A stretch of 64,000 bases of DNA from Candidatus Micrarchaeota archaeon (lineage in GTDB: Archaea; Micrarchaeota; Micrarchaeia; Micrarchaeales; CABMGC01): positions 27,020 through 91,019 of the forward strand of contig CAZCSE010000001.1 of NCBI GenBank assembly GCA_964501245.1, read 5' to 3'. A program made the position numbers and the translations under genes. Of this stretch, positions 2,435 through 48,597 are shown piece after piece; position 1 is the first letter of the stretch, and each line of letters opens with the position of its first letter. The notes beneath the pieces were generated by a model. It had not been told where the DNA came from, did not search any database, and saw nothing but the letters and a program-made list of their open reading frames with translations.

Positions 2435-2532
2435 ATTAACACAATGACAAAGATATTCTTGTCATTTATATTTCTTGCTGCACGCATTACACTTTGCCGT
2501 TATCCTGAATTGATCTTCCTTGTATCAGGAGA

Positions 2533-3513: not shown

Positions 3514-3608
3514 CTGAAAAGTTGTGTTGCAGGTTATTTGTACTGTTTAGAATATAAAATTATACCCTATTATATTTTATAATAACTGATGTTTTTACAG
3601 GTAATATA

Positions 3609-7281: not shown

Positions 7282-8246
7282 GTTCATTGCTTGGTGTTTA
7301 CATACCTACGATGAATAGGCCTGCTGAATTGAAGGAATGCCTTGAAGCATTCATCAAGCAGGGCAGGAAGCATCGTTTGGATATCTATGTGTCTGACAAC
7401 TCGCAGGGCAGTCAGACAAAGGAATTGGTCCGCAATCTCTCCAAAAAATACAGATGGCTCCATTACGCAAGAAGGGATCCTAAAGGATACGCAGACAACG
7501 TAAAAAGCGTACTGGCCATGGGCGATACGGAATACGTGTGGCTCTTCGGGGATGACGATACAATAAAATCTGGCGCTATCGACCTGATATTAAGCAAGTT
7601 AGATGCTGGGATAGATTACCTGCAGGTAAATTCCGAGGTTTATTCCCATGACCTCAATCGGAAGATAAAACCAAGGATAATCAAAAAATCCGGAGTTGAA
7701 TCTTACAATAATGATGAATACGAAACTGCTCTGCTTAACAATGGAAACACAGGCTATCAGGGTTTCATGGCACATATGATTGTGAGGAAATCTTTGCTGG
7801 ACAGGGAGCTTAGGAAACTGGATATCTCAGCAGATAATATGGATTTCGTACACACCATTATTTTTTACAGAGCTATAAAAAACAGGAAAGGGATGCTTCT
7901 TGCAGACCCTTTGATAAATAACCGGGGTGGCAATTGGAGCTACTCCAAGAGGATAATGGAGATATTCTTCAGGAGTTGGTATAAAACACATCATATGTTA
8001 AGCAGATATTACAGAAAAGAGACGTTGGATAATGTCATGTCGCAGCCGCTTATCGGGCTCATAATACCTGTTGCGATAAACAGGATAGTAAACAGGACAT
8101 CAATCTCTGAAGATTATAATAAATATATAAAAACCAACTCTGATATACCACAAAGGTATAGATACGCATTACTTTTGATAATGCATATGCCGCGTTTTGC
8201 AATAAGGGCAGTGTTTGATACTTACAAGACAATTAAAGGTTATTAA
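7278..8246 (+). CDS. glycosyltransferase family 2-like protein
   Basis: 322 aa. VYIPTMNRPAELKECLEAF ... YVSDNS ... LFGDDD motifs. The TTG start overlaps the rfbG stop by 4 nt; an alternative ATG is at 7311. Confidence 0.65.
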   Translation: MSSLLGVYIPTMNRPAELKECLEAFIKQGRKHRLDIYVSDNSQGSQTKELVRNLSKKYRWLHYARRDPKGYADNVKSVLAMGDTEYVWLFGDDDTIKSGAIDLILSKLDAGIDYLQVNSEVYSHDLNRKIKPRIIKKSGVESYNNDEYETALLNNGNTGYQGFMAHMIVRKSLLDRELRKLDISADNMDFVHTIIFYRAIKNRKGMLLADPLINNRGGNWSYSKRIMEIFFRSWYKTHHMLSRYYRKETLDNVMSQPLIGLIIPVAINRIVNRTSISEDYNKYIKTNSDIPQRYRYALLLIMHMPRFAIRAVFDTYKTIKGY

Positions 8247-9104
8247 ATGCAGATTTTAAGATCTATAAATAAAGGCTTTGGACTTCTAAAACACGCTAGT
8301 TTTACTGGAACTATAAAAACGGCTATAGCATATTCTAAGGTAAGGTATTATAATAAATTTGTGTCGACCGCTAGGATTAGTCCCCCTTATCCCCCAGATA
8401 CTCCTGAAATGGATAGTAAGGTAAAAACGGTGAGATTTATGATAAACTATCATAATAAGAATATCAGCATCACAGGTTGGAGATTTTGGGAGACTTTTCT
8501 TGCAATAAAAGAGGTATTTGTAGAGAGGGAGTATGACTGGCTTGATGTGACTGGAAGGAAGATACTCGATTTAGGCGCTTTTACAGGAGATTCTGCAGTA
8601 AGTTTTGCTGTTAGAGGCGCAAAGGAGGTTTATGCATGTGAAGCTAATCCAAACATGATTAACATTATAAATTACAATATTATGGATAATAAATTGCAGA
8701 ATAAAGTAAAGGTATTGCATTGCTTTGTAGGAGATAAAGATTCTGATGATTCGGATTTTTATTTTGATGAACAGAATATGGTAAATCGCTCGGCAAAACT
8801 TAAGTTACATGCAATAAATAGCAAAGTGCCTACAGTGAGTCTCGCCACGCTCATTAAAAGGTACGGAGTAGTTGATGGATGCTTGAAAATGGATATTGAA
8901 GGTGCAGAATACGAAGTCATAGAGTCAACTTCATTATCCACGCTGAGAAAATTCAGGCAGATGCAAATAGATTTCCATAAGATTGATAATAGGAATTATA
9001 AATCAATCAAGAATAAACTTGAGGAAGCAGGATTTGATTGCCAAGTACACTTTGTAGGTACACAGGGAGGAGGATATATAAGTGCGTTGAGCATGAACTC
9101 GTGA
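8247..9104 (+). CDS. FkbM-family SAM-dependent methyltransferase
   Basis: 285 aa. ILDLGAFTGDSAVSFAVRGAKEVYACEANP and LKMDIEGAEYEVI motifs. Confidence 0.75.
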   Translation: MQILRSINKGFGLLKHASFTGTIKTAIAYSKVRYYNKFVSTARISPPYPPDTPEMDSKVKTVRFMINYHNKNISITGWRFWETFLAIKEVFVEREYDWLDVTGRKILDLGAFTGDSAVSFAVRGAKEVYACEANPNMINIINYNIMDNKLQNKVKVLHCFVGDKDSDDSDFYFDEQNMVNRSAKLKLHAINSKVPTVSLATLIKRYGVVDGCLKMDIEGAEYEVIESTSLSTLRKFRQMQIDFHKIDNRNYKSIKNKLEEAGFDCQVHFVGTQGGGYISALSMNS

Positions 9105-9962
9105 TTATTTATTATTTTTATTTTTTTGATATAATAGATTTATTAGGAGTACTATACCTTGCATACTCGAGTGCGAATACCTGACATTGATGTTATTTAC
9201 CGTCTCTTTGTTATCTAAATCTAAGTATGTTATAATGCCTTCTTTTCGTAAATGGCGTATTATTTCCTTGCTTGCGTTATCTAAAGATTCTGCATTTGAC
9301 TTGTATTTTTTGTATCTTTCTATGAAGAGTTCTAAGGTTTGTTTTATATCCAGTTGCCTGAAGCTGCGATCAACGTATGCATCGCGTATAGCCATCTTTA
9401 TCGGCCGTTCTACAGGGAAGACATCGTTCAGCTTGTTGTAATCCCATCTCTTCGGTTTTCCGGTATCGTGGATAACATATAGCTCTTCTATCTTTATGTC
9501 TTTGACCTTGCCTAGTATTCTTGGAGTTTCATGAAGAAGACCCTTCCATTCCAATGAACCCTTCCTGAAGAGCCTGTACTGCTTCGTGTACAGGGTGCTG
9601 TTCCTGTTCCTCGGAGTCATCTCATGGCGCTGCAGCCTGTATATGTCTGCCGTTCCTGAGTCAAGGAGCGCTTTTGCCTTGCCTGTATCGCTGAATCTTT
9701 CATCTACATCCAGCATCGCTATATGGTCGTATCTGCAGAGGCTTACCCCATAGTGCCTGAATGGTTCGGGATAGCCGAGCCTTAGCGCATAGAATATCCT
9801 TATCCTTCTGTCCTTGTTCCTTGAAATGAAGCTCTTGAAGTCCTTATAGCTCTTTGAATAGATTATGACAACTTCATCAGTGAATTCAAGGAGGTGTTTT
9901 GCAGCTGCCAGAGTATCCTTTATCGGATCAGCCGAGAATATCAATCCAGATATCTTTGCCAT
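9105..9962 (-). CDS. putative glycosyltransferase (GT2-like, DxD)
   Basis: 285 aa. The N-terminal GT-A-like beta-alpha pattern and MLDVDERF (DxD-like) support the call. Convergent with the FkbM gene with zero gap. Confidence 0.45.
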   Translation of the reverse strand: MAKISGLIFSADPIKDTLAAAKHLLEFTDEVVIIYSKSYKDFKSFISRNKDRRIRIFYALRLGYPEPFRHYGVSLCRYDHIAMLDVDERFSDTGKAKALLDSGTADIYRLQRHEMTPRNRNSTLYTKQYRLFRKGSLEWKGLLHETPRILGKVKDIKIEELYVIHDTGKPKRWDYNKLNDVFPVERPIKMAIRDAYVDRSFRQLDIKQTLELFIERYKKYKSNAESLDNASKEIIRHLRKEGIITYLDLDNKETVNNINVRYSHSSMQGIVLLINLLYQKNKNNK

Positions 9963-10198
9963 AGTATGTCACTCTCTGTCCTTCCTATTTACATTGTCGA
10001 ACAAAAGATCACTATACTTAGAACATTCTCTGTTTGTTTTAATAGATTATCTTTCGGATGCGTTCCTTGCTGCTTCCTTTGCCCGGAATCTTATCACTTG
10101 CTTCGGCCTCTTTAGGCATCCGTGATATCTTCTAGTATATTTATATGTTTCTTATTTTATCGAAACATATATTAATCTGTTTTATCTATTATAGAAAC

Positions 10199-10804
10199 AT
10201 GAACAGGAAGGAGAGTATATACAGGAGCATAGCATGCAGTTACATAGATGGCAGGAACAGCTTCACGCAGCTTGGATTATCTAAAGAGCTCGGAGTATCG
10301 ATAAGCACGGTCAATTCAGCAGTAAGGGATCTGGCAAAGGTCAATGCGGTTAGGATAGGCATGCGCTCATTCAGCATCTCTGCAATAGACAGGGTAATGC
10401 TTTACTGGGCGTCTCACAGGAACCTGGATAAGGACATAATATACAGTACCAGAGTGGATGAGCGTGTCAAGGAGATAGAGGCAGGAATGCCCGAAGGAAT
10501 AGCGTTTACAGCGTATACTGCATATGTGCTACATTACAGGGATGCGCCTGCGGATTACAGCGAGGTTTACCTGTATGCAGTAGAAGGGGCAGTAGAGGAG
10601 ATAAAGGCAAGGTTCAAGGAGAATAAAGGTATTCCGAATCTCTTTGTCCTAAAAGCTGATCCTGATCTTGAAAGAAGGATAATTGATAATGGGATCATGC
10701 ATTCTTCGGTATGTCCGGCCCAGGCGTTTGTCGACTTATGGAACATTAAGAGCTGGTATGCTAAGGAGTATTCGGATGCGATTCTGAAGAGGATAGGTGT
10801 CTGA
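10199..10804 (+). CDS. wHTH regulator/antitoxin-like protein paired with an NTase
   Basis: The ORF track starts at 10145, but the first 18 codons are hydrophobic junk in AT-rich sequence. The ATG at 10199 (MNRKESIY) is more plausible. HTH-like segment: FTQLGLSKELGVSISTVNSAVRDL. The stop abuts the next start. Confidence 0.5.
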   Translation: MNRKESIYRSIACSYIDGRNSFTQLGLSKELGVSISTVNSAVRDLAKVNAVRIGMRSFSISAIDRVMLYWASHRNLDKDIIYSTRVDERVKEIEAGMPEGIAFTAYTAYVLHYRDAPADYSEVYLYAVEGAVEEIKARFKENKGIPNLFVLKADPDLERRIIDNGIMHSSVCPAQAFVDLWNIKSWYAKEYSDAILKRIGV

Positions 10805-11431
10805 ATGGAGTTCTGGAATAGCGATATAACAGAGGAGAGCTGGAATAAGCTGCAGGAGATGCGAAAACGCTTTGATTTTATACTTATAGGAGGATGGGCG
10901 ATATATGTCTATACGAAAATGCACAAGTCCAAGGATATTGATATAATAGTTGATTATGATGTACTCAGAAGCTTGGGCAGTCTTGGGAAGGTTCAGAAGA
11001 ATGACAGATTACATAAGTATGAGATAAAGTCGGAACGTTTTGATATTGATGTCTATCTTCCCGGCTATTCGAAACTTGCACTTCCTCCAGAAGAGATATT
11101 TAAGGATTTGAACAGGAGGGTAGAAGGATTCCGCGTACCTACTCCAGAGGCACTGATGGTGCTTAAACTGGGAGCTGCAAAGGAGCGGCTGAAGAGCATA
11201 AAGGGAGAGAAGGATGCTATCGACATATTATCCATGCTCTTCTTCTCTGATTTCAACCCCGAGCTCTTCAAGAAGATTGTTGAAAAGAATAGAGGTAATG
11301 AGTATGTACGCCTGCTCCTGAGCATCCTGAGATCTGCAGACAGAAGGGAGATAAGTTATCTAAATCTGAATGAGAAGACCTTCTCAGGCCTGAAGAAGAG
11401 GTGGGAGATGGAGCTGTTGAGGATACTCTGA
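10805..11431 (+). CDS. minimal nucleotidyltransferase-fold protein
   Basis: 208 aa. FILIGGWAIYVYTKMHKSKDIDIIV is the GG-x(13)-DID NTase signature. Zero-nt gap to the upstream wHTH gene. Confidence 0.55.
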   Translation: MEFWNSDITEESWNKLQEMRKRFDFILIGGWAIYVYTKMHKSKDIDIIVDYDVLRSLGSLGKVQKNDRLHKYEIKSERFDIDVYLPGYSKLALPPEEIFKDLNRRVEGFRVPTPEALMVLKLGAAKERLKSIKGEKDAIDILSMLFFSDFNPELFKKIVEKNRGNEYVRLLLSILRSADRREISYLNLNEKTFSGLKKRWEMELLRIL

Positions 11432-11512
11432 GATACATGCGATACTTATCCTCAAGGGCTTCCGCAGTTTATAAGATGCCTTGCACTCCTTCTGTATAGA
11501 TTCTCAGGAGCA

Positions 11513-11583
11513 TTATCTTTTTTTGACAGAAGGTCCTGTGGCTTTGGCAGGTGTTATCTTTTTTGACAGAAGGCTCTGGGCTG
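11513..11583. repeat. two ~30-nt imperfect direct repeats containing oligo-T runs (terminator-like) in a convergent intergenic region
   Basis: ttatctttttttgacagaaggtcctgtggct (about 11513-11543) and ttatcttttttgacagaaggctctgggct (about 11555-11583). Confidence 0.6.
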
Positions 11584-11606
11584 CAAGTGAATGGCCAGGC
11601 TTCAGT

Positions 11607-12515
11607 TTAATAGTTATTCTTCAATGAGTCTTTCGCAGCCAGCTCAATCGCTTTGCGCGATGAGTACATAGGCTTCCATCCGAGCTTCCTTGCCCTCTTT
11701 ATGCTTAGGAGCATCTTCCTCACATCTCCTGCCCAGCCCCTTCCATTCATCTTATTTATATACACGTATTCAGGATTAAGGCCTGCCTCATGCGATACTA
11801 TATCAGCTATCTCTTTGACGCTCACCGTATCACTGCTCCCAACGTTGAAGCACTCGTTCTTCTTCAGCTTTGAGGCATGGACAAGAGCAGAAACAGCATC
11901 TGAATAGTAGATGTAGCTCTTTGACTGCCTGCCATCGCCAAGTATCTCAAGCCTCTTCGGGTTCTTCTTCAACTTCAGCGTAAAGTCATGCACTATCCCG
12001 TGCTCGCTCCTTCCCCCTGTTACATTTGCAAAGCGCAGTATTGCATAATCTATGCCATATAGTTCAGAATAATGCTCTATTATCATCTCGCAGAAGAGCT
12101 TGAAGATGCCATAATTAGATATCGGCTTCAGTGGGGCGCTTTCAGGCGTAGGTACTGTAGGGCTCTCCCCATAGACAACTGAAGAAGAGGAGAAGATTAC
12201 CTTTGATGCATCATGCTTCCTTGCAAGCTCCATGAGGTTTATTGTGGTGAGGACGTCTGATCTGAAGTGCTCTACAGTGTCTACCGCAGAGGATTTGACA
12301 TCAGGGTTCGCTGCAAGATGGTATATGACCGATCCTCTGCCTAATCTTATGTCAGTACTCAGGCGCAGGTCCCTCTTGAAGAACTTTGCCTTCTTGTTCA
12401 GGTGCCTTCCTGTTGAGAGATTATCTATTATTACGGTATCTGCTCCGCTCTCAGTAAGATAATCGGTGAGATGGCTGCCTATGAACCCAGCTCCGCCTGT
12501 GACTATTTGCTGCAT
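11607..12515 (-). CDS. UDP-glucose 4-epimerase-like NAD-dependent epimerase
   Basis: 302 aa. IVTGGAGFIGSHLTDYL and YGIFKLF (YxxxK). Confidence 0.8.
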   Translation of the reverse strand: MQQIVTGGAGFIGSHLTDYLTESGADTVIIDNLSTGRHLNKKAKFFKRDLRLSTDIRLGRGSVIYHLAANPDVKSSAVDTVEHFRSDVLTTINLMELARKHDASKVIFSSSSVVYGESPTVPTPESAPLKPISNYGIFKLFCEMIIEHYSELYGIDYAILRFANVTGGRSEHGIVHDFTLKLKKNPKRLEILGDGRQSKSYIYYSDAVSALVHASKLKKNECFNVGSSDTVSVKEIADIVSHEAGLNPEYVYINKMNGRGWAGDVRKMLLSIKRARKLGWKPMYSSRKAIELAAKDSLKNNY

Positions 12516-24662: not shown

Positions 24663-25280
24663 ATGGCATACATAAAGATGCAGGACATATTGGATGAGTT
24701 CAGCAGGCACAACAAGAAGGTATTCAGCATAAACGATGTCGCACGAATAATAGGTAAACCGAAAACTTATGCATCAAAACTGCTTTCTCATAGCAGGAAG
24801 GTTGGCAGGATAGAACGCGGCAAGTATTACCTCAAGGATTTCGATGGCCCTGATATGTACGAAATAGCATCGCAGATAGTATTTCCATCTTATGTGAGTA
24901 TGTTTGCGGCATTCCAATACTATTCGATAACTGAACAGGACATAGTCCGCTACAGTGTAGTTACCATAAAACGCCACAGGCCTGTCAAGATTGGAGATAC
25001 TGTTATAGAGTTTGTAACGTTTGGCAGGGATAGATTCTTCGGATACAAAAAGGTAGGCAACCTGTACATAGCAACTGTTGAGAAAGCGATTATAGACTCG
25101 CTATATATGGGCTCCCCTCCACTCTCTTATGTTGAGGAGGCATTCTCTGCGGCGTCGCGTATGGGACTGGTCTCTAAGGATGTGTTAATGAATACAGCAT
25201 CGCGGATGAGATCCAAAGTTACCGAGAAGAAGGTACTAGCGTTGATCGGAACAAGCGGCATTGGCGATGCGCCAGGGTAG
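24663..25280 (+). CDS. abiEi: AbiEi-like antitoxin/transcriptional regulator
   Basis: 205 aa. N-terminal wHTH (FSINDVARIIGKPKTYASKLLSHSRKVGRIERGKYY). 6-nt gap to the AbiEii gene. Confidence 0.6.
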   Translation: MAYIKMQDILDEFSRHNKKVFSINDVARIIGKPKTYASKLLSHSRKVGRIERGKYYLKDFDGPDMYEIASQIVFPSYVSMFAAFQYYSITEQDIVRYSVVTIKRHRPVKIGDTVIEFVTFGRDRFFGYKKVGNLYIATVEKAIIDSLYMGSPPLSYVEEAFSAASRMGLVSKDVLMNTASRMRSKVTEKKVLALIGTSGIGDAPG

Positions 25281-25286
25281 ACTTAT

Positions 25287-26087
25287 ATGATGGATGAATA
25301 TGGACTTATGGAGTTTTCGGACAGGTTCAGGGATACGAGGCAGCTGGAGAGAGATTACCTGCTGAACCTGCTGCTCCACGAAAATTACTCGGTATTTGCA
25401 AATGAGCTGGTGTTCAAGGGAGGAAATGCGCTGAAATACTTTTATAGCCTGAACAGATTCTCCGAGGACGCTGACTTTTCCTATGTACCATCTGCAGCAG
25501 TGCCTGATAGGAAGAGCCTTGAGGAAAAGATGAAGACAGTCCTAAAAAACTTCAGCTCGCAGTACCAGATAATGGAGACTGAACACAGGACAAGCAAGTT
25601 GAGAGATAGAATAATTGGCATAAATTTTGAGATACGTGTTAAGGGGCCTTTCAATGCAAGGTCAAAACAGCTTCAGAATATGAAAATTGATATAAGCTTA
25701 AGGGATGATCTGATAGAGAAGCCTGATATAAAGTATCTATCGCCAATTTACCCAGACCTTGCCACGTTTTCTGTTCCTGTAATGCAGATTGATGAAATAC
25801 TCTCCGAGAAGCTCTCAGCGATAGTCGAAAGGACAAAGATGCGCGATGTTTATGATACATACTATCTGCTCGTGGTGAGGAATGTAAGATATGATGAAAA
25901 GTTGCTTAAGGAGAAGATGCGCAGACGGAACGAGAGTTTCGATAAAGAAAGGCTTGCGAAAAAGCTTGAGGATGCGAAAGACAGGATGAAGTGGAGGTCT
26001 GAGCTAGCATATATAGTAAATCAATTGCCTGACAATCTGAAGGTGGTATCAGAACTGGAGGAGGCCATGGGAATAGTGCATGATTAA
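25287..26087 (+). CDS. abiEii: AbiEii/AbiGii-family nucleotidyltransferase toxin
   Basis: 266 aa. LVFKGGNALKYFYSLNRFSEDADFSY (GG...S.D.D NTase motif) and C-terminal ...RDVYDTYYL, typical of AbiEii. Confidence 0.75.
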   Translation: MMDEYGLMEFSDRFRDTRQLERDYLLNLLLHENYSVFANELVFKGGNALKYFYSLNRFSEDADFSYVPSAAVPDRKSLEEKMKTVLKNFSSQYQIMETEHRTSKLRDRIIGINFEIRVKGPFNARSKQLQNMKIDISLRDDLIEKPDIKYLSPIYPDLATFSVPVMQIDEILSEKLSAIVERTKMRDVYDTYYLLVVRNVRYDEKLLKEKMRRRNESFDKERLAKKLEDAKDRMKWRSELAYIVNQLPDNLKVVSELEEAMGIVHD

Positions 26088-26195: not shown

Positions 26196-26963
26196 TCACC
26201 TTGCCAGTATGAAGACAGGTTCTTTTGCGAACTTGCCTCCTTTTGGGCTTTTGCCTTCCCAACCATCATAGACATATGCCTTTAAGCCATTCCTCTTTGC
26301 AATCGCCTTTACCTGATCCACTCCGATAAGGTATTTTGCGGTGAATATGTCGCTGCTCTCAGCCGATATGCCTTTGCCGTTTGCTCTTATCGATACGGAA
26401 TAGGTGAATCCTGAATTTTTGGGCTCGCCGCACTGCCTGTGGTTAAGAAAGCTGTATTTTGTGTCCTTCTCCCCTATCAGCTTGCCATCATACTCATTGG
26501 TAGAATCCCTCTGCCAGCTGTCCAATGACAAGGGATTGTCGAACATTATAATCCCGCTTTTGTTCAGATGATTTGCCATGTTCTTTATCGTCTTTTCCAG
26601 CTCCTTCCTAAGGTCGTCTCCATGGTCGATCGCACATATTGAAACTATCATGTCGTACTTTTCATCTGTCTTGAACTTTCTCATGTCAGCCTTGAAGAAC
26701 TTTAGTTCAGGGTAGTTATCCCTTGCCTTTGCCACATTTTCCTTGCTTATATCCACTCCAGATATGGCATACTTGTTTTTTAGATATGGTATCAGAGGCG
26801 CATTTCCGAATCCAACGTCAAGCATCTTTCTTCCTTTGCCCTTGAGGAAGCGTTTGTTTGCATTATTTATGAAGCGTGCCTTTGCCATTATGTCCTTTTT
26901 GTATTCTTCGCTCTTTTCAAATTTGTATCTTGAAAAGAAATGCTTTGATATTCCCTTTTTCAT
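26196..26963 (-). CDS. class I SAM-dependent methyltransferase with C-terminal extension
   Basis: 255 aa. Motif I MLDVGFGNA; GVDIS; FKADM; YDMIVS. Confidence 0.75.
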   Translation of the reverse strand: MKKGISKHFFSRYKFEKSEEYKKDIMAKARFINNANKRFLKGKGRKMLDVGFGNAPLIPYLKNKYAISGVDISKENVAKARDNYPELKFFKADMRKFKTDEKYDMIVSICAIDHGDDLRKELEKTIKNMANHLNKSGIIMFDNPLSLDSWQRDSTNEYDGKLIGEKDTKYSFLNHRQCGEPKNSGFTYSVSIRANGKGISAESSDIFTAKYLIGVDQVKAIAKRNGLKAYVYDGWEGKSPKGGKFAKEPVFILAR

Positions 26964-26997
26964 TTTTGCACCTTATTTTGCATAAATTTGCAGGTAT

Positions 26998-27585
26998 TTA
27001 ATCATGGCCTGTATCCGCGCTAAGTTTCCTGCCAAGCTCTTCGTAATGTAATTTAGTCTTTGTTCTGGAGTATAACACCTCCCATTCTTTGTCATCAAGC
27101 TCTGCGATTGGTTTTGTCTCTCCGTCTGGCACAAATATCCTTTCTAAGGAATACCCCACGCGCCTGGTTCCTAGACTAATGGTATCCACTATTGTCCCAG
27201 TCATAGTGCTTGGGATAAGAGAGAATTCATTGGTTTTAGAATTATAGAACACTAATTCACTTACAAAACGTGCTCTGCGGTTTTTTTCACCGTTCATCAG
27301 CCTGAGGAATTTCTCTTCTCCAAGTGCGTACATTGTTGGTTTTAAAAGAGCACCTGGAAAATCTGCCAGAGCATCGATGTAAAGACCTGAATCATCTACT
27401 ATAAAATTCTCCTTGAAGGTCTTGGCAACCTGCTTTGCCTTGTCCATTACGACATCGTCTAAATTAATGGTTTGCAGTTCAGAAAGCTCCATCTTGCGCT
27501 GCTCCATGGTTATCCCGTATTTGGATAATACATCGCAGGCTATTTTGAACTTTACATTGTTCGTAGTCACGAATGTTATTTTCAT
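26998..27585 (-). CDS. Ham1/ITPase-family NTP pyrophosphatase homolog (paralog 2)
   Basis: 195 aa. ITFVTTNNVKFK, VDDSGLYIDALADFPGALLKP. The C-terminal FGYDPIF and SHR motifs are replaced (GYSLERIFVPDG; KLHYEEL). Confidence 0.7.
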   Translation of the reverse strand: MKITFVTTNNVKFKIACDVLSKYGITMEQRKMELSELQTINLDDVVMDKAKQVAKTFKENFIVDDSGLYIDALADFPGALLKPTMYALGEEKFLRLMNGEKNRRARFVSELVFYNSKTNEFSLIPSTMTGTIVDTISLGTRRVGYSLERIFVPDGETKPIAELDDKEWEVLYSRTKTKLHYEELGRKLSADTGHD

Positions 27586-27594
27586 ATTATCGCT

Positions 27595-28188
27595 TTAAGG
27601 GTTATTTTCTGAGAACCACTCTCCGAACTTATAGAAATGGTCGTCCTTTCTTGATTCTTCAAGAGTCCTGGCCCAGTCATTGTCATCCATCTCTGCCAAT
27701 GTTTTATCGAAATTATCAGGTATGAATATGCGCGCGACTTTCCAGCCTCGCGTGTTATTTCCCCGTTCCTCTTCTGAGATCCTGCCTTTGTAGATCCCTG
27801 TAAATAGCTTCTCAGTCTTTGATACAGGATCGTAATACGCCATCACGCTCTTTACGTATGCAGACCTGTTTTCTTCTCCAGAGAGCATCTTCAGCAGATG
27901 GCCATCTCTTATCGTATCCATTACAGGCTTGAGCAGCGCACCAGGGAATCCATTAAGCTGGTCTATGTAAAGGCCTGAATCCTCTACGAAAAAGGGCTTT
28001 TTTATCACCCCTTCAAGCTGCCTTGCCTTATGCAGGGCCACCTCTTCCACATCAAGGGACTGTATTTCCGAAACCGATGCGGTTTGCTGTAGTATATTGA
28101 TGCCATATCTGTTGAGCCTCTCATTGGCCATCTCTACCTTTCCCTTGTTTGATGTTACGAATACTATATCGATTTTCATAATGACCAC
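27595..28188 (-). CDS. Ham1/ITPase-family NTP pyrophosphatase homolog (paralog 1)
   Basis: 197 aa. IVFVTSNKGKVE, VEDSGLYIDQLNGFPGALLKP. The C-terminal motifs are diverged (GWKVARIFIPDN; DDHFYKF). Confidence 0.75.
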   Translation of the reverse strand: MVIMKIDIVFVTSNKGKVEMANERLNRYGINILQQTASVSEIQSLDVEEVALHKARQLEGVIKKPFFVEDSGLYIDQLNGFPGALLKPVMDTIRDGHLLKMLSGEENRSAYVKSVMAYYDPVSKTEKLFTGIYKGRISEEERGNNTRGWKVARIFIPDNFDKTLAEMDDNDWARTLEESRKDDHFYKFGEWFSENNP

Positions 28189-28277
28189 ACCTCACCGGAA
28201 AATATTACATGCAATGCGGTTGTAGATATAACGCACTTCCGCATATATATCTGATTCCTGATTTAAATGGCTTGCCA

Positions 28278-29051
28278 TCATGGCTCCTGGTAGAAGGTCC
28301 TTAAAGAGTGGGTTAGTGCAAGTAACTTCATGGAATTGCTCTCATCCAACCTTTGAAATCTCTTGGTTTTCCCATACCAAAGAGGTGCAAGGAATAATCC
28401 TGTGGGATAAGTCCTTTTGCTTATCTGAGTAATAGGATATGTGTGTTCAAAGTAAGATATGAAGAAAAATAAGTACCTGTATATCCATTCAATATAATCC
28501 GCTTTTTCCTTCTTAGAAAAACCTGCAACATTTAGGGATTTATCATTTTTAGTTATTGCCTGCTGGAACTCTACTGTGTTAAGAGGAGTCTTGCCGATTA
28601 AAGGCACTGCCGCCCACTGAGGATCAAGCATGACCCATTTCCCATAATCGTCAAGATATGCTTCTACAACCAGATGGCCTCCCGGATGTCTTATTGTCTC
28701 TATATTTTTTACCATGAGTGATATGGTGCGTGCCTTTATACCCATGGCCAATAGGCATGCCTTTAGAACCACCGCGTATTCAACACACCTGAATCTCTCT
28801 CCTTTTGCAGCTCTTTCAAGAAGCCATATCGGATCCACATTTCCGGGATTGTTACGTCCGTCATGCTTCCATCTCCCATGTGTCCATTTGCATAGCCTGA
28901 TGGCAGTATCAAGGTCATCCTTGGATCCTGAAACGACTTTGTCCAGCTTGTACGTCTTCCTTAGCTTTGTCAGATAGCTATTTCTTGGGCCACTGAAACT
29001 GTAGTTGTATCTTTTGAAGCTGTTATCAAATTTAAGCTTCTGTCTCTTCAT
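28278..29051 (-). CDS. transglutaminase-like cysteine protease-fold protein
   Basis: 257 aa. Cys-His-Asp pattern: FRCVEYAVVLKACLLAMGIKART ... GGHLVVEAY ... WVMLDPQW. Confidence 0.7.
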   Translation of the reverse strand: MKRQKLKFDNSFKRYNYSFSGPRNSYLTKLRKTYKLDKVVSGSKDDLDTAIRLCKWTHGRWKHDGRNNPGNVDPIWLLERAAKGERFRCVEYAVVLKACLLAMGIKARTISLMVKNIETIRHPGGHLVVEAYLDDYGKWVMLDPQWAAVPLIGKTPLNTVEFQQAITKNDKSLNVAGFSKKEKADYIEWIYRYLFFFISYFEHTYPITQISKRTYPTGLFLAPLWYGKTKRFQRLDESNSMKLLALTHSLRTFYQEP

Positions 29052-29132
29052 CCGGTCTTCCTCCCATTTATCAATCTTAATTTATGGATAATAAACCTTT
29101 GTTATCTTCTCCATGTTTCGCAAGTAGCGAAC

Positions 29133-29672
29133 CTATCTGCTATCGTTTAGTTTTAGTTCCTTATATGTGTGTATGTCTATACCGTTTTCAGCATAAATCT
29201 TTGCCACGCTTATGTTGCCTTTGTTTTTTGCGACTATCCTTAGTTCCTTTATTACATTGTTTATCGTCTCTTCCTGCGGTGCTTCTACCTCCATTACAGG
29301 AGATATCATTGGCCAATAGTCTAGGGTTATCTCTGCGTCCTTATATTTGTAAGTCACCCTCCTGTTTTCCTGATAATAGTAGTTCGGTATGATTTTCTTG
29401 AACATTTCTGCTGCAACATCAAAATCATTTATCTCAGTTTCAAGTTCCTCAGTGTTGGATAGACCGGTGCCTTTGCGGTATTTGTAAGCCAAAGTGGTTT
29501 TGACCCCATCCGTACGTATTCGTATGAATTCATCTATACCACTCTTATCATCACTTAAGTCGAACACCCACCGCCTTTGGACCCTGTCTGAAAGCTTTGC
29601 CGCTCTTTCTTCAAGTATACTTAACACTTCTTTCTCATCGAAGTCAGTCAGTTTTGTCTCTATTTCTTTCAT
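29133..29672 (-). CDS. CYTH-domain protein (triphosphate tunnel metalloenzyme / class IV cyclase-like)
   Basis: 179 aa. N-terminal ExExK (MKEIETK), IRIRTDG..TTLAYK, ITLDYWP...VMEVEA. Confidence 0.75.
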   Translation of the reverse strand: MKEIETKLTDFDEKEVLSILEERAAKLSDRVQRRWVFDLSDDKSGIDEFIRIRTDGVKTTLAYKYRKGTGLSNTEELETEINDFDVAAEMFKKIIPNYYYQENRRVTYKYKDAEITLDYWPMISPVMEVEAPQEETINNVIKELRIVAKNKGNISVAKIYAENGIDIHTYKELKLNDSR

Positions 29673-29699
29673 AATTACACATTTTGCAGCAGCAGATAG

Positions 29700-30296
29700 T
29701 TATGATATTTTTATCCCTAGCTTTTTCATATTCTCCTTCATGCCATAAAGACTGTCAAATAATATGGTATTAATTCCAAGCTCTCTTGCTACTGAAAGGT
29801 TTTCATCAGTATCTTCTATGAAGAGCATCTCATTATATTCAAATCCTGTTTTTTCCTTTACAAACTCGTATACGCGTTTATCAGGTTTCCTATAATGTAT
29901 TCTGGACGAAGGGAATTCAAAGTCAAAAAAGTTGTTTCCAAGTTGTGAGACCACATACATATACCTATTTTCCTCATTGTTTGTTAAACTGGCCAACTTG
30001 TAGTTCCTTTTAAGCGACCGGATAAACTCCACATTTTGATCGTATATCTTTAGATTTTCTTTGTAATACTCTAGGAACCTGATTTGACTAATATCTAAAC
30101 CAAGTCCTTCTGCAATTAATCTTTCAGCTTCTTGAAGACTTATTGCAGATATTGAGAGCTTTATCGTAATCGGTTTTACAACACTTACTACTTCATCTTT
30201 GTCCTTCCCGGAAACCTTGCAAAGATAATCGATATACCCCCCACTTGTGTTGTTGTTTATTATTCCACCCATATCAAAAAGTATTAGTTTTATCAT
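29700..30296 (-). CDS. HAD-superfamily hydrolase
   Basis: 198 aa. Motif I LILFDMGGII (DxG variant), SLTNN, FIEDTDENL. Confidence 0.7.
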   Translation of the reverse strand: MIKLILFDMGGIINNNTSGGYIDYLCKVSGKDKDEVVSVVKPITIKLSISAISLQEAERLIAEGLGLDISQIRFLEYYKENLKIYDQNVEFIRSLKRNYKLASLTNNEENRYMYVVSQLGNNFFDFEFPSSRIHYRKPDKRVYEFVKEKTGFEYNEMLFIEDTDENLSVARELGINTILFDSLYGMKENMKKLGIKIS

Positions 30297-30517: not shown

Positions 30518-32638
30518 TTAGAGTTTAATATGGTTATTAATATACTGAATAGCTTCTTTCCTGATCTTACTCCTGCTTTTGCCGTCCTTTGAGAGTTTTG
30601 ACATTGTTTTTTCAAGCTTGTCATAGAACTCAGGGCCTGTGGCCTTTAATGACTTGAACTTAGGGTATGACTCCAGACGCCACTCCTTCAGCTTGTTATA
30701 GTATTTAACTGCAGAATTAAACGTGGTTTTCTGCCTTTGGCTTAATCTTTTTAGATCCATATGGCCTTTTGAGTCTACCATCTCCAAGAAGTCTGTTATA
30801 TCCTTGCCCATCGGACCCAGAATAGGCTTTAGCTTTCCATCCAAAGAGGTTATCCCGTATCCTTCACAGATCAATTCATTTACTAGAGTATAGCACCATT
30901 CTGCATATATGAGCTTTGATAATCTTTTTAGATAGTCTTCCCTTCTCTCTCCTGATATTTTGTCATACTGGACCATCGACTCTGCAGCCTCTTTTAGAAG
31001 AACTCTGGATATCTTTTCAACTCTCTCTGGATTGCACGATCTTGCTGAGTCTATTGCAGACTCTGTCAGGCTGTTTAGTACCTTATTCTTCTTGTATTCA
31101 TAATATAGATGGCAGATGGAGTTTTTTGGAGCACCACCGATCTTAATCTCCTTGCCTTCCCCATATGCCTTTCCGAATAAATGTCTGATCTCATTCTTGT
31201 CAAGTTCGTCGTATGAGTAATAGATCAGCCTGTCCTCAAATTCTTCATAATATATGTCTTTCTTGGCAAGTTTTAACGTTTTGTCAAAATCGTAAAGATA
31301 ACTGTAATCAAGGCTTCTTTTTGCGCTGATTCCTGAAGAGGCACTGCCCAAGTATACTGCACCATTAGTCCCGTCAACCACCACTTTATTGCCATCCTTT
31401 ACCTTCCCCATTATGCCTTCTATACCTACTACGCATGGTATTCCAAGCTCTCTGGCCACTATGGCAGCGTGTGATAGGACCCCGCCATCTTGGGTTACTA
31501 TGGCTTTTACCCCTTTAACTGACTCTGTTGAGTATTCTGTATCAAGGACATCTAAAACAAGCACTACGCCCTTAGGTATAAGCTCTCCAGGGTTTTTTAT
31601 CTTCTTTACCTCACCAGCAGCTATTCCTGCTGATGCAGGGTAGCCCATCAGTGCCTTTCCTGCATTGCTTATAATCGCTTGTGCAGTAGTATGCTTCCTT
31701 CCGGTAGTTATGCTCCTGCTCTGGAGTATGTATATTGTCCCATCCTTTACCGTCCACTCTATATCCTGCGGTAATCCGAAGGTCTTCTCTATCTCAAGGC
31801 CCATCCCTGCAAGCTTATACAGGATTGGCTTTGGAAGACTCCTGACAGAGCTTGGATTGATGTCAGATATGCTGGTGCCTCCATCGGCATGAGGCACAAA
31901 TATCTTCTTCTGCGTAACGTATTCTGAAGTTTCCATCTTGCGGCTCTTATTGTCAAACACAAATTTGCTTGGAGTTATCCTTCCTGAGACCATGCCCTCA
32001 TTGAGGCCCGCTATGGCTTCTATTATGGTCTTGTCAGCAAAATTTACAGGATTGCGCGTAAACATTACTCCTGAATAGCTGCCAACAATCAGCTCTTGGA
32101 TTACCACTGCCATTTTTACCTTGTGTATAGGTGTGCCGGTTTCTTTGCAGTATGATATCACTTCAGGGCTGTAGGTAGAGCTGTAAACTTCCTTTATAGC
32201 ATTTGCCACTTGCTCTATACCAGTTACATTGATCACTGTCCTGAATCTTCCTGCAAAACTGGCTTTCTCAGAGTCTTCAGCTGTTGCTGAACTCCTCACT
32301 ACAAGATTATGCCCAATCATTCCTGATTCTTCTAATTTCCTTTCGAGGCTTTTAAGTGTAATTTCAGGGATTGCAGATTTAGATAAAGCCGTTTTAAGAT
32401 CCGTGATTTTATCCATTGTTTTAGTCTGCTTATCCAATATCTTTGACAGCCCGTTTTGTTCCAAGTACTCATCAAAGATACGCGTAGTTAGTATTACTCC
32501 GCGAGGGACATTAAAATTCTTGGATAGGATAAACAGCGCTTGTCCTTTACCGCCAAATTCATCTGCACTTACCGCCAATCCTTTTGACTTCTTGCCAAGC
32601 TTTATTGGTATTAACTGCATTGAATCCGATCTGACCAT
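30518..32638 (-). CDS. PEP-utilising-enzyme family protein (ATP-grasp PPDK_N + phospho-His swivel domain) with novel C-terminal domain
   Basis: 706 aa. GGKGQALFIL..NVPRGVILT, VVRSSATAEDSEKASFAGRF, MAVVIQELI..SGVMFTRNP, PQDIEWTVKDGTIYILQSRSIT, GGVLSHAAIVARELGIPCVVG (catalytic His). The last ~265 aa show no PEP/pyruvate-barrel motifs. Confidence 0.8.
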   Translation of the reverse strand: MVRSDSMQLIPIKLGKKSKGLAVSADEFGGKGQALFILSKNFNVPRGVILTTRIFDEYLEQNGLSKILDKQTKTMDKITDLKTALSKSAIPEITLKSLERKLEESGMIGHNLVVRSSATAEDSEKASFAGRFRTVINVTGIEQVANAIKEVYSSTYSPEVISYCKETGTPIHKVKMAVVIQELIVGSYSGVMFTRNPVNFADKTIIEAIAGLNEGMVSGRITPSKFVFDNKSRKMETSEYVTQKKIFVPHADGGTSISDINPSSVRSLPKPILYKLAGMGLEIEKTFGLPQDIEWTVKDGTIYILQSRSITTGRKHTTAQAIISNAGKALMGYPASAGIAAGEVKKIKNPGELIPKGVVLVLDVLDTEYSTESVKGVKAIVTQDGGVLSHAAIVARELGIPCVVGIEGIMGKVKDGNKVVVDGTNGAVYLGSASSGISAKRSLDYSYLYDFDKTLKLAKKDIYYEEFEDRLIYYSYDELDKNEIRHLFGKAYGEGKEIKIGGAPKNSICHLYYEYKKNKVLNSLTESAIDSARSCNPERVEKISRVLLKEAAESMVQYDKISGERREDYLKRLSKLIYAEWCYTLVNELICEGYGITSLDGKLKPILGPMGKDITDFLEMVDSKGHMDLKRLSQRQKTTFNSAVKYYNKLKEWRLESYPKFKSLKATGPEFYDKLEKTMSKLSKDGKSRSKIRKEAIQYINNHIKL

Positions 32639-32725
32639 TGAATTTACCTATAATTATTTTATACAGGCATAACTTTATCCGGATTTATTATGTGTATATG
32701 TACCAATATATTCTTTGTGACTGCA

Positions 32726-33304
32726 ATGACTGAAGAAAGCGAGATTGATAGAAGCATCTCTGAAACTATAAGACTATGGAATCAGTCTAAGAGAGAAATT
32801 TTTAGATTGCAGTTACTTAATACTTATTGGGAGGATACAAAAACAGATGCCTTTAAAGAATTCATGAAAGGAAAGCTGATAGACCCTATGGAAAATCCAG
32901 GATTTAAGGATTTTGTTGATGATATAGCTAAAAAAAGGGCTGACGGAGTCAATATAGTAAATATGCAGGTATTAGATTTGCCAATTAGTGATGCTCTGAG
33001 GTTTGGTATAGGCTTCTTGAGAGTTTCAGAAAAAAATGGGCAGAGAAGCTTATTTGTAGAAAGAAAGGACGTTACAGACCTGGTAAAAGGATTTAAGGAT
33101 TTCTATATTTTTGACTCGGAGATAGTGATGAACATTATTTATGATAAAAATTTGGAAGGCAGGTATCTCGGCTCGGAAAAAATCATTACTGATCCAAAAG
33201 AGGTTACTAGATATACCAATCTTAGAGATAAGTTAATTGAGAAAGCTTTTCCTATGGAAGATTTCTTGAAAGAGCATCATATTGATATTTTTAGTAACAG
33301 CTAG
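32726..33304 (+). CDS. hypothetical protein, possibly DUF6879-like
   Basis: Start moved to the ATG at 32726 (MTEESE). The overall pattern (F.L.. ..Y.......F..F..G ... V..L.DLP..D...F....... DFYIFD ... DP..V..Y) recalls DUF6879. Memory-based and weak. Confidence 0.35.
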   Translation: MTEESEIDRSISETIRLWNQSKREIFRLQLLNTYWEDTKTDAFKEFMKGKLIDPMENPGFKDFVDDIAKKRADGVNIVNMQVLDLPISDALRFGIGFLRVSEKNGQRSLFVERKDVTDLVKGFKDFYIFDSEIVMNIIYDKNLEGRYLGSEKIITDPKEVTRYTNLRDKLIEKAFPMEDFLKEHHIDIFSNS

Positions 33305-33323: not shown

Positions 33324-33938
33324 TTAATACTTCTTCTGAGTGTTTTTCTTTATTGACTTTTGAATTCTTTGCAGCCCACTTGTTATATCTTTTATATTGG
33401 CCTCATCGAAAAGGATCATTGTTTCATATTCCGCATTTTCTTTTGACTTCTTTATGAGTTTTATAGTGCTGTCTGGCATCGCCCGGTTATTGCCTTTCTT
33501 CGTGTATATGAATCCGATGTTTGCCCATAATTCATCGATCTTCTCTTCAGGTAAACTGCGGATTCTTTTTGCTATATCAGTAAGTTCCTTCTTTGTTATT
33601 GTCTCTCCTGATAGATTGGTAAAACTTTTACTTGCCATTATCTTTCTGCTGATCCCTGCATCTCCTAGGTAATTCAGTTTGCCCACCTGGTTCGTTATCT
33701 TTACTACTACATCGATGCCTTTCTCTAAACACAGTTTTTCAACAAGCTCATATGCGATATTTTCAGATTCTTTAATCTGCAGTATAACCTTGTCAGGCAG
33801 CGCATTGTTGTCTCCTGCTTTCTTGTATATTACACCTGCCCTGAACCAAATCTCATCTATGGCCTCTTTGGGCATCGCAGATATCTGAGTTGAGAGTATG
33901 GAAATCTGATGATCGTGTGTTTTCCCAGATATCTGCAT
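33324..33938 (-). CDS. hypothetical protein with two copies of a ~50-aa [AS][LM]Pxxx[IV]DE[IL]W...G.I....G.N.A domain
   Basis: 204 aa. Internal repeat: AMPKEAIDEIWFRAGVIYKKAGDNNALPDKVILQIKESE / SLPEEKIDELWANIGFIYTKKGNNRAMPDSTIKLIKKSK. Confidence 0.45.
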   Translation of the reverse strand: MQISGKTHDHQISILSTQISAMPKEAIDEIWFRAGVIYKKAGDNNALPDKVILQIKESENIAYELVEKLCLEKGIDVVVKITNQVGKLNYLGDAGISRKIMASKSFTNLSGETITKKELTDIAKRIRSLPEEKIDELWANIGFIYTKKGNNRAMPDSTIKLIKKSKENAEYETMILFDEANIKDITSGLQRIQKSIKKNTQKKY

Positions 33939-47394: not shown

Positions 47395-48597
47395 TCAGCT
47401 TAGGCGGCTTGTCGAATGCCTTTTTGTCCCTCCGAGAGCCTTTAGAAGGCCTACAGGATCCGTGAAGTTTACGGTGCACCTTCCTACGCTCTTACTCGCC
47501 ATGTCACCGCTTTTAAACACAACAAAGGCTCTCTTCGGCTTATAGGACTCTATGAATGAATGCAGGCTCCTCTCCACGTGCTGCCCTTCCGCCTTTAGCT
47601 TGACCTCTATAGGTATTATCTCGGGCCCTTTCCTGATAATGAAATCCACCTCGGCCCTGCTTTTTGACTGCCAGAATTTTACGTCAAAGCCGGATTTTAG
47701 CAATTCAGAGAATAGATAATTCTCGAACAACTTTCCGGCTGATTCAGCGCCGATTACGAAGTCATTTGCAACGGCATTCCTTAAGCCAGTATCAAGAAAA
47801 TATATCTTGGGCTGTTTGGTTATCTCTTTGAATCTGTTCTTGTAAAAAGGCATGGCCCTTGCTATGATGTAGCTCTTTTCCATTGCATCCAGATATTTCT
47901 TGACGGATTGAAAGGAGAGCCCGAGGTCTCTGCATATGTTGTTGTATACTACGGCGCTTCCGGTAGAATGCGAGAGGTATACTGCAAGGCGCTCTATAGC
48001 ATCCGCATCGTTTATGCTGAACGTACGGGCAACGTCGCGCAGGACCATTGTTTTATAGAGGTCCTTGAGCAGCATTTCCTTGTTCTGCGCATCGCCTTCA
48101 AGCACCACCTTAGGATAACCTCCGTACAGCATGTGCTCTTCCATCAATCTGCTTGCTATACTCGGAGTAAGCTGGCGCTGCCCTTTGGCCGTAAGAAATT
48201 CAGCAAATGAGAATGGATACAGCGTCAGCACCGATACCCTTCCTACAAGCCAGCCGAGCACATCCTTCCCGAGCATAGTCTGGGACGAGGATGTCACCCA
48301 TAGCCTCTTTCCTGTATCAGCCAGATATTTAAGCTTCCTGCCTGCGTCCTTTCCGTTCTGTACCTCATCAAGGACTACAGGCGCGTTTCCCTTCAAGTAT
48401 TGGCTCTCAAACTTTTTGACATCTTCATCGAACATCTCCCTTATGTCAGGATCATCGAACAGGAGGTAACCTGCAGCTCCATGCTGTTCCTTTAGAAAAG
48501 TTGTCTTCCCCGCCTGGCGCGGTCCGACTATCGCTACGATGTTAGTAAGTTTTGATGCAGAGAGAAATTCTCTGTGTATGCTGCGTTCAACGTACAT
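47395..48597 (-). CDS. AAA-type ATPase with DUF4143-like C-terminal domain (COG1373-type archaeal ATPase)
   Basis: 400 aa. Walker A VGPRQAGKTT, Walker B VVLDEVQ. The C-terminal region with E.DF…IEVK pattern is typical of the PD-(D/E)xK-like DUF4143. Confidence 0.75.
   Translation of the reverse strand: MYVERSIHREFLSASKLTNIVAIVGPRQAGKTTFLKEQHGAAGYLLFDDPDIREMFDEDVKKFESQYLKGNAPVVLDEVQNGKDAGRKLKYLADTGKRLWVTSSSQTMLGKDVLGWLVGRVSVLTLYPFSFAEFLTAKGQRQLTPSIASRLMEEHMLYGGYPKVVLEGDAQNKEMLLKDLYKTMVLRDVARTFSINDADAIERLAVYLSHSTGSAVVYNNICRDLGLSFQSVKKYLDAMEKSYIIARAMPFYKNRFKEITKQPKIYFLDTGLRNAVANDFVIGAESAGKLFENYLFSELLKSGFDVKFWQSKSRAEVDFIIRKGPEIIPIEVKLKAEGQHVERSLHSFIESYKPKRAFVVFKSGDMASKSVGRCTVNFTDPVGLLKALGGTKRHSTSRLS

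Follow-up and report, generated by a model that had tools for sequence, protein, structure and literature searches.

A swivel-domain dikinase of Micrarchaeota with a novel C-terminal domain and a putative non-pyruvate acceptor

What does a phosphoenolpyruvate (PEP)-utilizing enzyme phosphorylate when it lacks the domain that handles PEP and pyruvate? This question is raised by a dikinase-like gene at 30518..32638 (-) in a stretch of DNA from a Candidatus Micrarchaeota archaeon (contig CAZCSE010000001.1), which was analysed over its full 64 kb and is hereafter called the window. An earlier, sequence-only reading of this DNA had noted that the encoded protein lacks the PEP/pyruvate barrel and ends in a tail that it could not assign, and had suggested that the enzyme probably phosphorylates some other acceptor. 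The range it singled out, 30518..31321, encodes residues 440-706 and includes the stop codon, and the peptide strings it quoted map to residues 385, 432 and 691. We are confident that the product of this gene is a swivel dikinase that acts on something other than pyruvate and has a novel acceptor domain. The complete explanation developed below, which runs from the dikinase to a likely peptide acceptor, is held with modest confidence, and the assignment of a peptide as the acceptor, taken by itself, is tentative.

The open reading frame (ORF), identified from the ORF list and the family alignment, encodes a protein of 706 amino acids (aa) in the order ATP-grasp domain, swivel domain, novel tail. 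An identical protein is encoded on six independent metagenome contigs, and 75 columns are invariant across homologues of 74 %, 44 % and down to ~33 % identity. Because both identical copies and homologues at such distances exist, the ORF is a genuine gene and not a chance reading frame. PADLOC linked neither the gene nor its neighbours to any defence system, and scans of the window with Rfam and for tRNAs found nothing.

The catalytic module occupies the N-terminal part of the protein. Residues 27-320 (31679..32560 (-)) match the ATP-grasp nucleotide-binding domain PPDK_N (Pfam PF01326, E 2e-64), and residues 354-426 (31361..31579 (-)) match the mobile phospho-histidine swivel domain of PEP-utilizers (Pfam PF00391, E 4e-21). 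The translated swivel motif, GGVLSH390AAIVAR, agrees with the catalytic-His pattern GGxx(S/C)HAAI, and within GGVLSHAAIVA the predicted catalytic His390 is encoded at 31469..31471 (-). All 12 members of the family that were aligned share T382-x2-G385-G386-x-L388-S389-H390-A391-A392 without exception, together with the ATP-grasp residues K31, R115, S116, S117, E121, D122, Q291-T296 and R308. As judged from sequence, this pattern of conservation is no more than compatible with dikinase autophosphorylation and AMP-forming transfer.

Over this module the closest relative by sequence is PEP synthase, PpsA, with 36-38 % identity over the first ~58 % of the protein. The PpsA structure 8a8e is the best sequence match in the PDB, contiguous over query residues 82-440 and thus spanning both the grasp and the swivel domains; 8a8e and 2ols align unbroken through the swivel domain to residue ~440. 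The two proteins share the same grasp-to-swivel order over the first 440 aa and the catalytic motif GGxxSHAAI. However, PpsA carries a regulatory Thr two positions before the His, in the motif GGxT[S/C]HAAI (PMC12167813), whereas this site is Leu388 in the window protein. All alignments to solved structures in the PDB sequence search stop by about residue 440-457. The NCBIfam models of PpsA, PPDK, rifampin phosphotransferase (RPH), PigC and RedH likewise cover the N-terminal ~440 aa only and score far below their curated cutoffs, by about 3- to 8-fold (best scores: NF004881, 267 vs 883 bits; NF005057, 259 vs 598; TIGR01418, 245 vs 740); the PPDK model TIGR01828 reaches 74 bits against a cutoff of 843. 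Within these N-terminal matches, the RPH, PigC and RedH models align to residues 27-312 and the swivel domain only.

The novelty of the protein resides in what follows, a presumed acceptor-binding domain at residues 436-706 (30521..31333 (-)). Pfam detected no PEP-utilizers_C barrel (PF02896) in the window protein and assigned no family to the last 267 aa when these were searched alone. The tail alone gave no meaningful match to NCBIfam, the PpsA, PPDK, RPH, PigC and RedH models included, and its comparison with PDB sequences, both as a single sequence and as a profile, returned chance matches only, namely MTH1615 and thyrotropin beta (the latter through a 'CxGY' coincidence). An AlphaFold2 model of the tail with the family alignment as input (mean pLDDT, the predicted local confidence, 91.7; predicted TM-score 0.89) shows a small beta-sheet of about five short strands followed by a nine-helix bundle, which is not a TIM barrel, and the full-length model (pLDDT 83.5) reproduces the same secondary structure. 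Foldseek comparison of the tail with the PDB gave no significant match (best E 0.09, TM < 0.35), and comparison with BFVD gave no viral counterpart. The Foldseek results consisted solely of generic helical bundles, such as BAR domains, syntaxin and tape-measure proteins, which all had TM < 0.35 and were dismissed as noise. The tail is an alpha+beta domain without a detectable sequence or fold relative outside a tiny family.

These results bear out what had been read from the letters alone. The PEP/pyruvate barrel is indeed absent, as judged from the missing PF02896 match, from the confident model of a sheet plus helices, and from the alignment of PF02896-bearing PpsA over only ~58 % of the query. 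The tail also proved to lie beyond assignment in Pfam, NCBIfam, PADLOC, PDB sequences (single and profile) and Foldseek against PDB and BFVD. Its reported richness in Lys, Glu and Tyr is evident in its composition relative to the rest of the protein (K, 14.2 vs 9.1 %; E, 9.0 vs 6.2 %; Y, 8.2 vs 2.5 %).

Is the tail nevertheless a substrate domain of the RPH type? When the full-length model was searched with Foldseek, RPH structures ranked first, with 5hv3 reaching a query-normalised TM-score (TMq) of 0.52 over 844 columns; the ATP-grasp domain superposes on that of RPH chain 5hv6_A with a target-normalised TM-score (TMt) of 0.87 and TMq 0.39. The 844 columns of 5hv3 would be accounted for by the grasp domain (~310), a gap over the 430-residue RIF-binding domain of RPH and the swivel domain (~100), with the tail left unaligned, so that by this column arithmetic the gain in TMq over 5hv6_A would be due to the swivel domain, the tail contributing nothing to it. 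In agreement, the RPH sequence alignment consists of query residues 28-312 plus a separate swivel segment, and no RPH chain appears in the top 50 Foldseek matches for the tail alone. A resemblance of the tail to the RIF-binding domain as the cause of the top rank of RPH was rejected on the basis of the column count, the tail-only search and the RPH profiles together. Neither profiles nor Foldseek identified the tail as a known RPH-type substrate domain, an identification that would have refuted the sequence-only reading.

A comparison with the known enzymes places the protein more precisely. Dikinases in which the acceptor domain has been exchanged form a recognised class, which includes RPH, HpeHI, PpsAB and PigC/HapC (PMC4844700, PMC12167813). 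Like RPH, HpeHI, CreHI, the phenylphosphate synthase PpsAB and PigC/HapC/RedH, the window protein combines an ATP-grasp domain and a swivel His with a domain for an acceptor other than pyruvate, and the regulatory Thr is absent here as in the RPH type. The domain order is different: RPH runs grasp, acceptor, swivel, whereas the window protein runs grasp, swivel, acceptor, and it has no central RIF-binding-type domain of ~430 aa between the grasp domain and a C-terminal swivel domain. The acceptor domains also differ in size, that of RPH having 428 aa in three subdomains and the window tail 271 aa. Relative to PpsA, the difference lies in the C-terminal PEP/pyruvate TIM barrel, in place of which the alpha+beta domain stands.

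The tail is under strong constraint. Twelve tails align end to end at 22-69 % identity, with 11 invariant columns (in the numbering of the full-length protein, E465, Y474, G501, K505, C591, G593, Y594, Y647, W653, Y658 and L682). Because these residues are invariant among members that are as little as 22 % identical, the tail is not decaying. Two motifs are outstanding, LxNxxICEGYG and YYxxxKxWRxxSYPxF...GAxG. The most conserved element of the tail, CEGYG (C591, E592, G593, Y594, G595; 30854..30868 (-) by translation), is positioned at a break between two long helices; C591, G593 and Y594 never vary, and at least 90 % of members keep E592.

We considered whether this domain might serve a protein partner. 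The enzyme could be a protein-directed phosphocarrier like Enzyme I of the phosphotransferase system, with the tail docking a partner that receives phosphate from His390, or the tail could serve oligomerisation or regulation only. Enzyme I has a homologous swivel domain, and the tail is mostly a helical bundle, a frequent scaffold for protein-protein interaction. However, the invariant residues are polar or aromatic (E, K, C, Y, W) and, with the strict CEGYG break, look more like a ligand or catalytic site, and no conserved partner candidate is seen across loci besides the radical S-adenosylmethionine (SAM) enzyme and small peptide described below. A phosphocarrier role is therefore improbable in our judgement.

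The family that shares this tail is small. An exhaustive phmmer search with residues 436-706 against 1.84 billion (1.84e9) representative proteins recovered 14 representatives, of which 11 are full length (675-735 aa) with the domain at the same C-terminal position and 3 are fragments of 98-117 aa. The exhaustive search was needed, since word-indexed homologue searches with the tail alone or with the tail profile found no match; a metagenome scan with the tail profile also found nothing. Among all proteins fetched, the hidden Markov model (HMM) of the tail matches only the ~700-aa members and short fragments. The closest genome match, a Candidatus Micrarchaeota metagenome-assembled genome (locus L006), is 74 % identical, and members that could be traced to a named source are mostly from Micrarchaeota. 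In public databases members are called 'phosphohistidine swiveling domain-containing protein', 'hypothetical protein [Candidatus Micrarchaeales archaeon]' or 'hypothetical protein [Nitrososphaerota archaeon]'.

In the word-indexed search with the full-length protein, family members score at least 368 bits and the next proteins drop to 248 bits. These outsiders are canonical PpsA proteins with the PF02896 barrel, covering only the first ~58 % of the query. Because the nearest outsiders across this sharp score gap are barrel-bearing PpsA, the family looks like a derivative of the PpsA lineage in which the C-terminal TIM barrel was replaced by a domain of ~270 aa.

Could the protein simply be a PEP synthase or PPDK that has degenerated or diverged yet still converts pyruvate and PEP into one another, its tail an unrecognisable barrel or an appendage on a decaying gene? 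The top PDB and NCBIfam matches are indeed to PpsA, and the member from Candidatus Mancarchaeum acidiphilum (P0029) bears the public names 'pyruvate phosphate dikinase [Candidatus Mancarchaeum acidiphilum]' and 'pyruvate, water dikinase'. On the other hand, the PpsA, PPDK and RPH models all score far below their cutoffs without any PF02896 match, the confident model contains no beta/alpha barrel, the gap from 368 to 248 bits sets barrel-bearing PpsA apart, and a tail with 11 invariant residues is too strongly constrained to be decaying. We therefore consider a surviving pyruvate-PEP activity highly improbable. The Mancarchaeum member, a barrel-less member of the family, lies at 10001-12097 of locus L024, equivalent to 398661-400757 of CP019964.1, the closed genome of the co-cultured strain Mia14, and its annotation as PPDK/PpsA is probably a misannotation. 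The metabolic reconstruction of this organism counts the PEP synthase/PPDK genes MIA14_0437 and MIA14_0462 as pyruvate-converting enzymes (PMC5498576). Should P0029 correspond to either gene, counting it as pyruvate-converting is very probably an error.

The mechanism that we propose for the non-pyruvate dikinase is modelled on the established chemistry of PpsA, PPDK and RPH (PMC4844700, PMC12167813), and both phosphotransfer and the identity of the acceptor are inferred. ATP would be bound by the ATP-grasp domain, and, as happens in PpsA and RPH, His390 of the swivel domain would accept the beta-phosphate while AMP and Pi are released. The phosphate would next travel with the swivel domain to an acceptor bound in the new C-terminal domain, at a site that may be built from the invariant E465, Y474, K505, C591-E-G-Y594, Y647, W653 and Y658. 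The earlier suggestion that the protein probably phosphorylates a non-pyruvate acceptor remains the best reading, given the invariance of the catalytic grasp and swivel residues and of the 11 tail residues.

The gene neighbourhoods of relatives offer a candidate for this acceptor. In 6 of the 12 lineages checked, the dikinase gene adjoins a gene for a radical SAM enzyme with a SPASM domain (403-439 aa), and a decayed remnant is found in a seventh. The members concerned are P0002 (L011/L012), P0003 (L015), P0004 (L013/L014), P0005 (L016), P0006 (L018) and P0012 (L023), and the same adjacency was seen again on metagenome contig L026. There are two layouts: the radical SAM gene lies either upstream and co-directional, with gaps of 4-38 bp, or convergent, with overlaps of 14-23 bp. 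Because the flanking genes differ between loci, the adjacency has outlived rearrangement. The radical SAM proteins are mutually orthologous (37-59 % identity, all with CNERCxFC) and belong to no curated family; the GeoRSP, NirJ, WgkB and KxxxW-maturase TIGR04080 models score far below their cutoffs. TIGR04080 and WgkB are among the full-length profile matches, and TIGR04080 gives the archaeal proteins 50-68 bits against a cutoff of 500, with other SPASM families scoring equally well or better, so that these maturases fall outside TIGR04080.

Immediately upstream of each radical SAM gene whose upstream region is on the contig lies an ORF of 37-44 aa that ends in FG(M/L)xK-x3-W; an example of such a precursor peptide is MMDGIKTKLTTATVINKVVVAKAVKSCWRFGMMKGDGWR. 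Peptides with the K-x3-W signature were identified in L011/12, L013/14, L015, L016, L023, L026 and L028, and their cores read ...EEIRNCWRFGMMKGDSWPKT in L011, ...KAVKSCWRFGMMKGDGWR in L015 (an exact KGDGW), ...KAVNSAQFGLKKTQPWP... in L013, ...VSNSAQFGLKKSYPWP in L026, ...AVSNYREFGMKKTGGWS in L016, ...VLNYREFGMKKTGGWI in L028 and ...SGSGEFGMPKGTRWPN in L023. Variants of the signature include KGDGW, KGDSW, KTGGW, KTQPW, KSYPW and KGTRW. The cassettes extend over 6574-10103 in L011, ~445-3908 in L013, 2435-6946 in L015, 8001-11434 in L016, 609-4042 in L023 and 2194-3037 in L028, and are also present in L012, L014, L018 and L026. More distant relatives of the radical SAM enzyme (L027, L029-L032) are accompanied by neither the dikinase nor the motif.

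This arrangement recalls streptide. The streptococcal SPASM radical SAM enzyme KW_cyclase/StrB joins Lys and Trp in a KGDGW motif (PMC5491770), and the partner genes of the relatives, unlike the window itself, show the same placement of a K-x3-W precursor ORF just upstream of a SPASM radical SAM gene. The archaeal peptides differ in carrying a distinct FG(M/L) element in the leader/core, and the loci differ in lacking a counterpart of strC, the streptococcal protease/ABC exporter gene, and in having the dikinase gene adjacent instead. From these genes, the cassette of peptide, radical SAM enzyme and dikinase looks like an undescribed streptide-like system of peptides that are made on the ribosome and modified after translation (RiPPs), or a peptide-cofactor system, in DPANN archaea. 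A full-text literature search combining PEP-utilizing enzymes or phosphoenolpyruvate synthase with radical SAM and RiPP terms retrieved no paper linking a His-swivel dikinase to such peptide systems. In two of the loci a polyamine aminopropyltransferase (SpeE)-like gene abuts or overlaps the 3' end of the dikinase gene (L011, 10084-10947; L015, 6047-6946); it scores below the curated SpeE cutoffs.

Because of these radical SAM and K-x3-W neighbours in relatives, the substrate that the family phosphorylates, or activates in this way, is most likely a ribosomal peptide or its product, and on the present gene contexts the acceptor would most likely be a KxxxW peptide, crosslinked or not, or a derivative of it. 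A more specific version, with this family as the first of the His-swivel dikinases to be dedicated to a ribosomal peptide, seems doubtful: Lys and Trp would be crosslinked by a radical SAM enzyme resembling StrB, after which the dikinase would act, the window gene being an uncoupled member. In such a pathway the new domain would bind the crosslinked FG(M/L)xK-x3-W precursor and phosphorylate it or activate it for a further reaction, and the adjacent aminopropyltransferase might take part in some clusters.

Several observations weigh against a peptide acceptor. The peptides contain no conserved Ser, Thr or Tyr as an obvious phospho-acceptor; phosphorylation of another group, or an activation of the kind proposed for PigC-type enzymes, might be involved, which is speculation. 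By tblastn, profile and motif searches, no radical SAM gene, K-x3-W peptide or SpeE-like gene was detected in the window, and L006 and the 22 kb that surround the Mancarchaeum copy held none either; P0007, P0010 and P0029, like L006 and the window, have no adjacent radical SAM gene or peptide. For the window copy and its nearest relative, both lacking the cassette, the peptide may be encoded elsewhere in the genome, or the enzyme may have drifted to another acceptor. In P0009 (L021), moreover, the radical SAM enzyme is reduced to the last ~65 residues of the SPASM C-terminus (remnant ORF 7435-7974, the radical SAM-like part being ~7774-7974), directly upstream of an intact dikinase gene at 8001-10058 that keeps every invariant residue. 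Because the radical SAM gene has decayed there while the dikinase is intact, the dikinase is not strictly dependent on this partner. Finally, the conserved neighbours of the window copy, namely a HAD hydrolase, a CYTH-like protein and two Ham1 proteins, point to small phosphorylated metabolites or nucleotides.

These neighbours are transcribed in the same direction as the dikinase gene. The HAD-family hydrolase gene (29700..30296 (-); Pfam HAD_2/Hydrolase) begins 221 bp downstream of it and is followed by genes for a CYTH-like protein (29133..29672 (-)), so called for its 28 % identity to the CYTH protein of L006, a transglutaminase-like protein (28278..29051 (-)), two Ham1/ITPase proteins (27595..28188 (-) and 26998..27585 (-)) and, as the last of the series, a methyltransferase (26196..26963 (-)); the final four genes were assigned by Pfam. 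The order in L006 is dikinase, HAD, HAD, Ham1, Ham1, CYTH, methyltransferase. The co-directional block at 26196-30296 (-) resembles a nucleotide/phosphate 'house-cleaning' set with a putative link to the dikinase, and shares part of its gene order with L006.

Such a neighbourhood would suit a dikinase that, in the manner of RPH and HpeHI, phosphorylates a small metabolite such as a nucleoside, nucleotide, sugar or phenolic compound and works with the HAD and nucleotide house-cleaning genes, the peptide cassette of the relatives being another specialisation or a coincidence. We regard this as unlikely on the whole; it is the main rival explanation for the window copy. It gains support from the HAD gene that follows the dikinase in both the window and L006, with two Ham1 genes, CYTH and a methyltransferase downstream in both, from the intact dikinases where the radical SAM gene is absent or decayed, and from the fact that the characterised swapped-domain dikinases all use small molecules. 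However, the synteny is limited to two close relatives and so possibly reflects ancestry; it may have been inherited through close kinship without functional meaning, and neither HAD nor Ham1 occurs near the dikinase in any other clade. In addition, 221 bp separate the dikinase gene of the window from the HAD gene, and L002, a locus from another sample that otherwise matches the window, carries two inserted genes (2448-3709; 200 and 220 aa, no Pfam match) between the HAD gene and a dikinase gene whose protein is identical to that of the window; because of these the 221-bp intergenic stretch is a variable junction. The 11 invariant residues of the tail do not differ between members with and without the cassette, which suggests one common type of acceptor throughout the family.

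Several other features of these loci were recorded. On the opposite side, a gene of the DUF6879 family (Pfam PF21806, E 6e-25) lies at 32690..33304 (+), divergent to the dikinase gene; it stands beside the dikinase in L001-L005 and is absent there in L006. Adjoining it is a 204-aa ORF at 33324-33938 (-) with two halves that look similar by eye and no match in Pfam, PADLOC or elsewhere, and both genes also flank the dikinase in L001. Just beyond the methyltransferase, an ORF of 205 aa without a Pfam match (24663..25280 (+)) precedes a gene for an AbiEii-type nucleotidyltransferase toxin (25287..26087 (+)), and the two (24663-26087 (+)) probably form an AbiE-type toxin-antitoxin pair. Genes for AAA_14/DUF4143 ATPases occur no more than a few kb from family members in three unrelated loci (window, 47395-48597 (-); L019, 272-1564; L024, 12186-13475) and directly adjoin the member in L019 and L024, perhaps by coincidence, as the gene is common in archaea. 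Other genes of the window fit an archaeon, among them an EF-Tu-type translational GTPase (GTP_EFTU + GTP-eEF1A_C), SUF genes, KaiC and UbiA. In L006, a tandem paralogue at 7827-9854, just upstream of the family member, combines PPDK_N and a swivel domain with a different tail of ~260 aa that is also without assignment; a shared tail was ruled out (hhalign probability 0.2 %, no HMM match). These archaea may thus possess several barrel-less dikinases with distinct acceptor domains.

Taken together, swivel dikinases with non-pyruvate acceptor domains are already known (RPH, HpeHI/CreHI/PpsAB, PigC/HapC and the glucan-water dikinases), and what is new here is the acceptor domain itself, the grasp-swivel-acceptor order, the restricted distribution and the recurrent coupling to radical SAM enzymes and KxxxW peptides. 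For enzymology, an acceptor domain with no solved fold relative joins the toolkit of swivel dikinases in a new domain order, and its conserved CEGYG/Tyr/Trp site is suited to mutagenesis. For the reduced, host-dependent archaea that carry it, a barrel-less member provides no basis for inferring a link between pyruvate and PEP. The recurrent association of the dikinase with KxxxW peptides and a SPASM maturase suggests an undescribed RiPP-like pathway of DPANN archaea with an ATP-dependent dikinase step, and the dedication of this dikinase to a ribosomal peptide, if true, would mean a new archaeal RiPP or peptide-derived cofactor.

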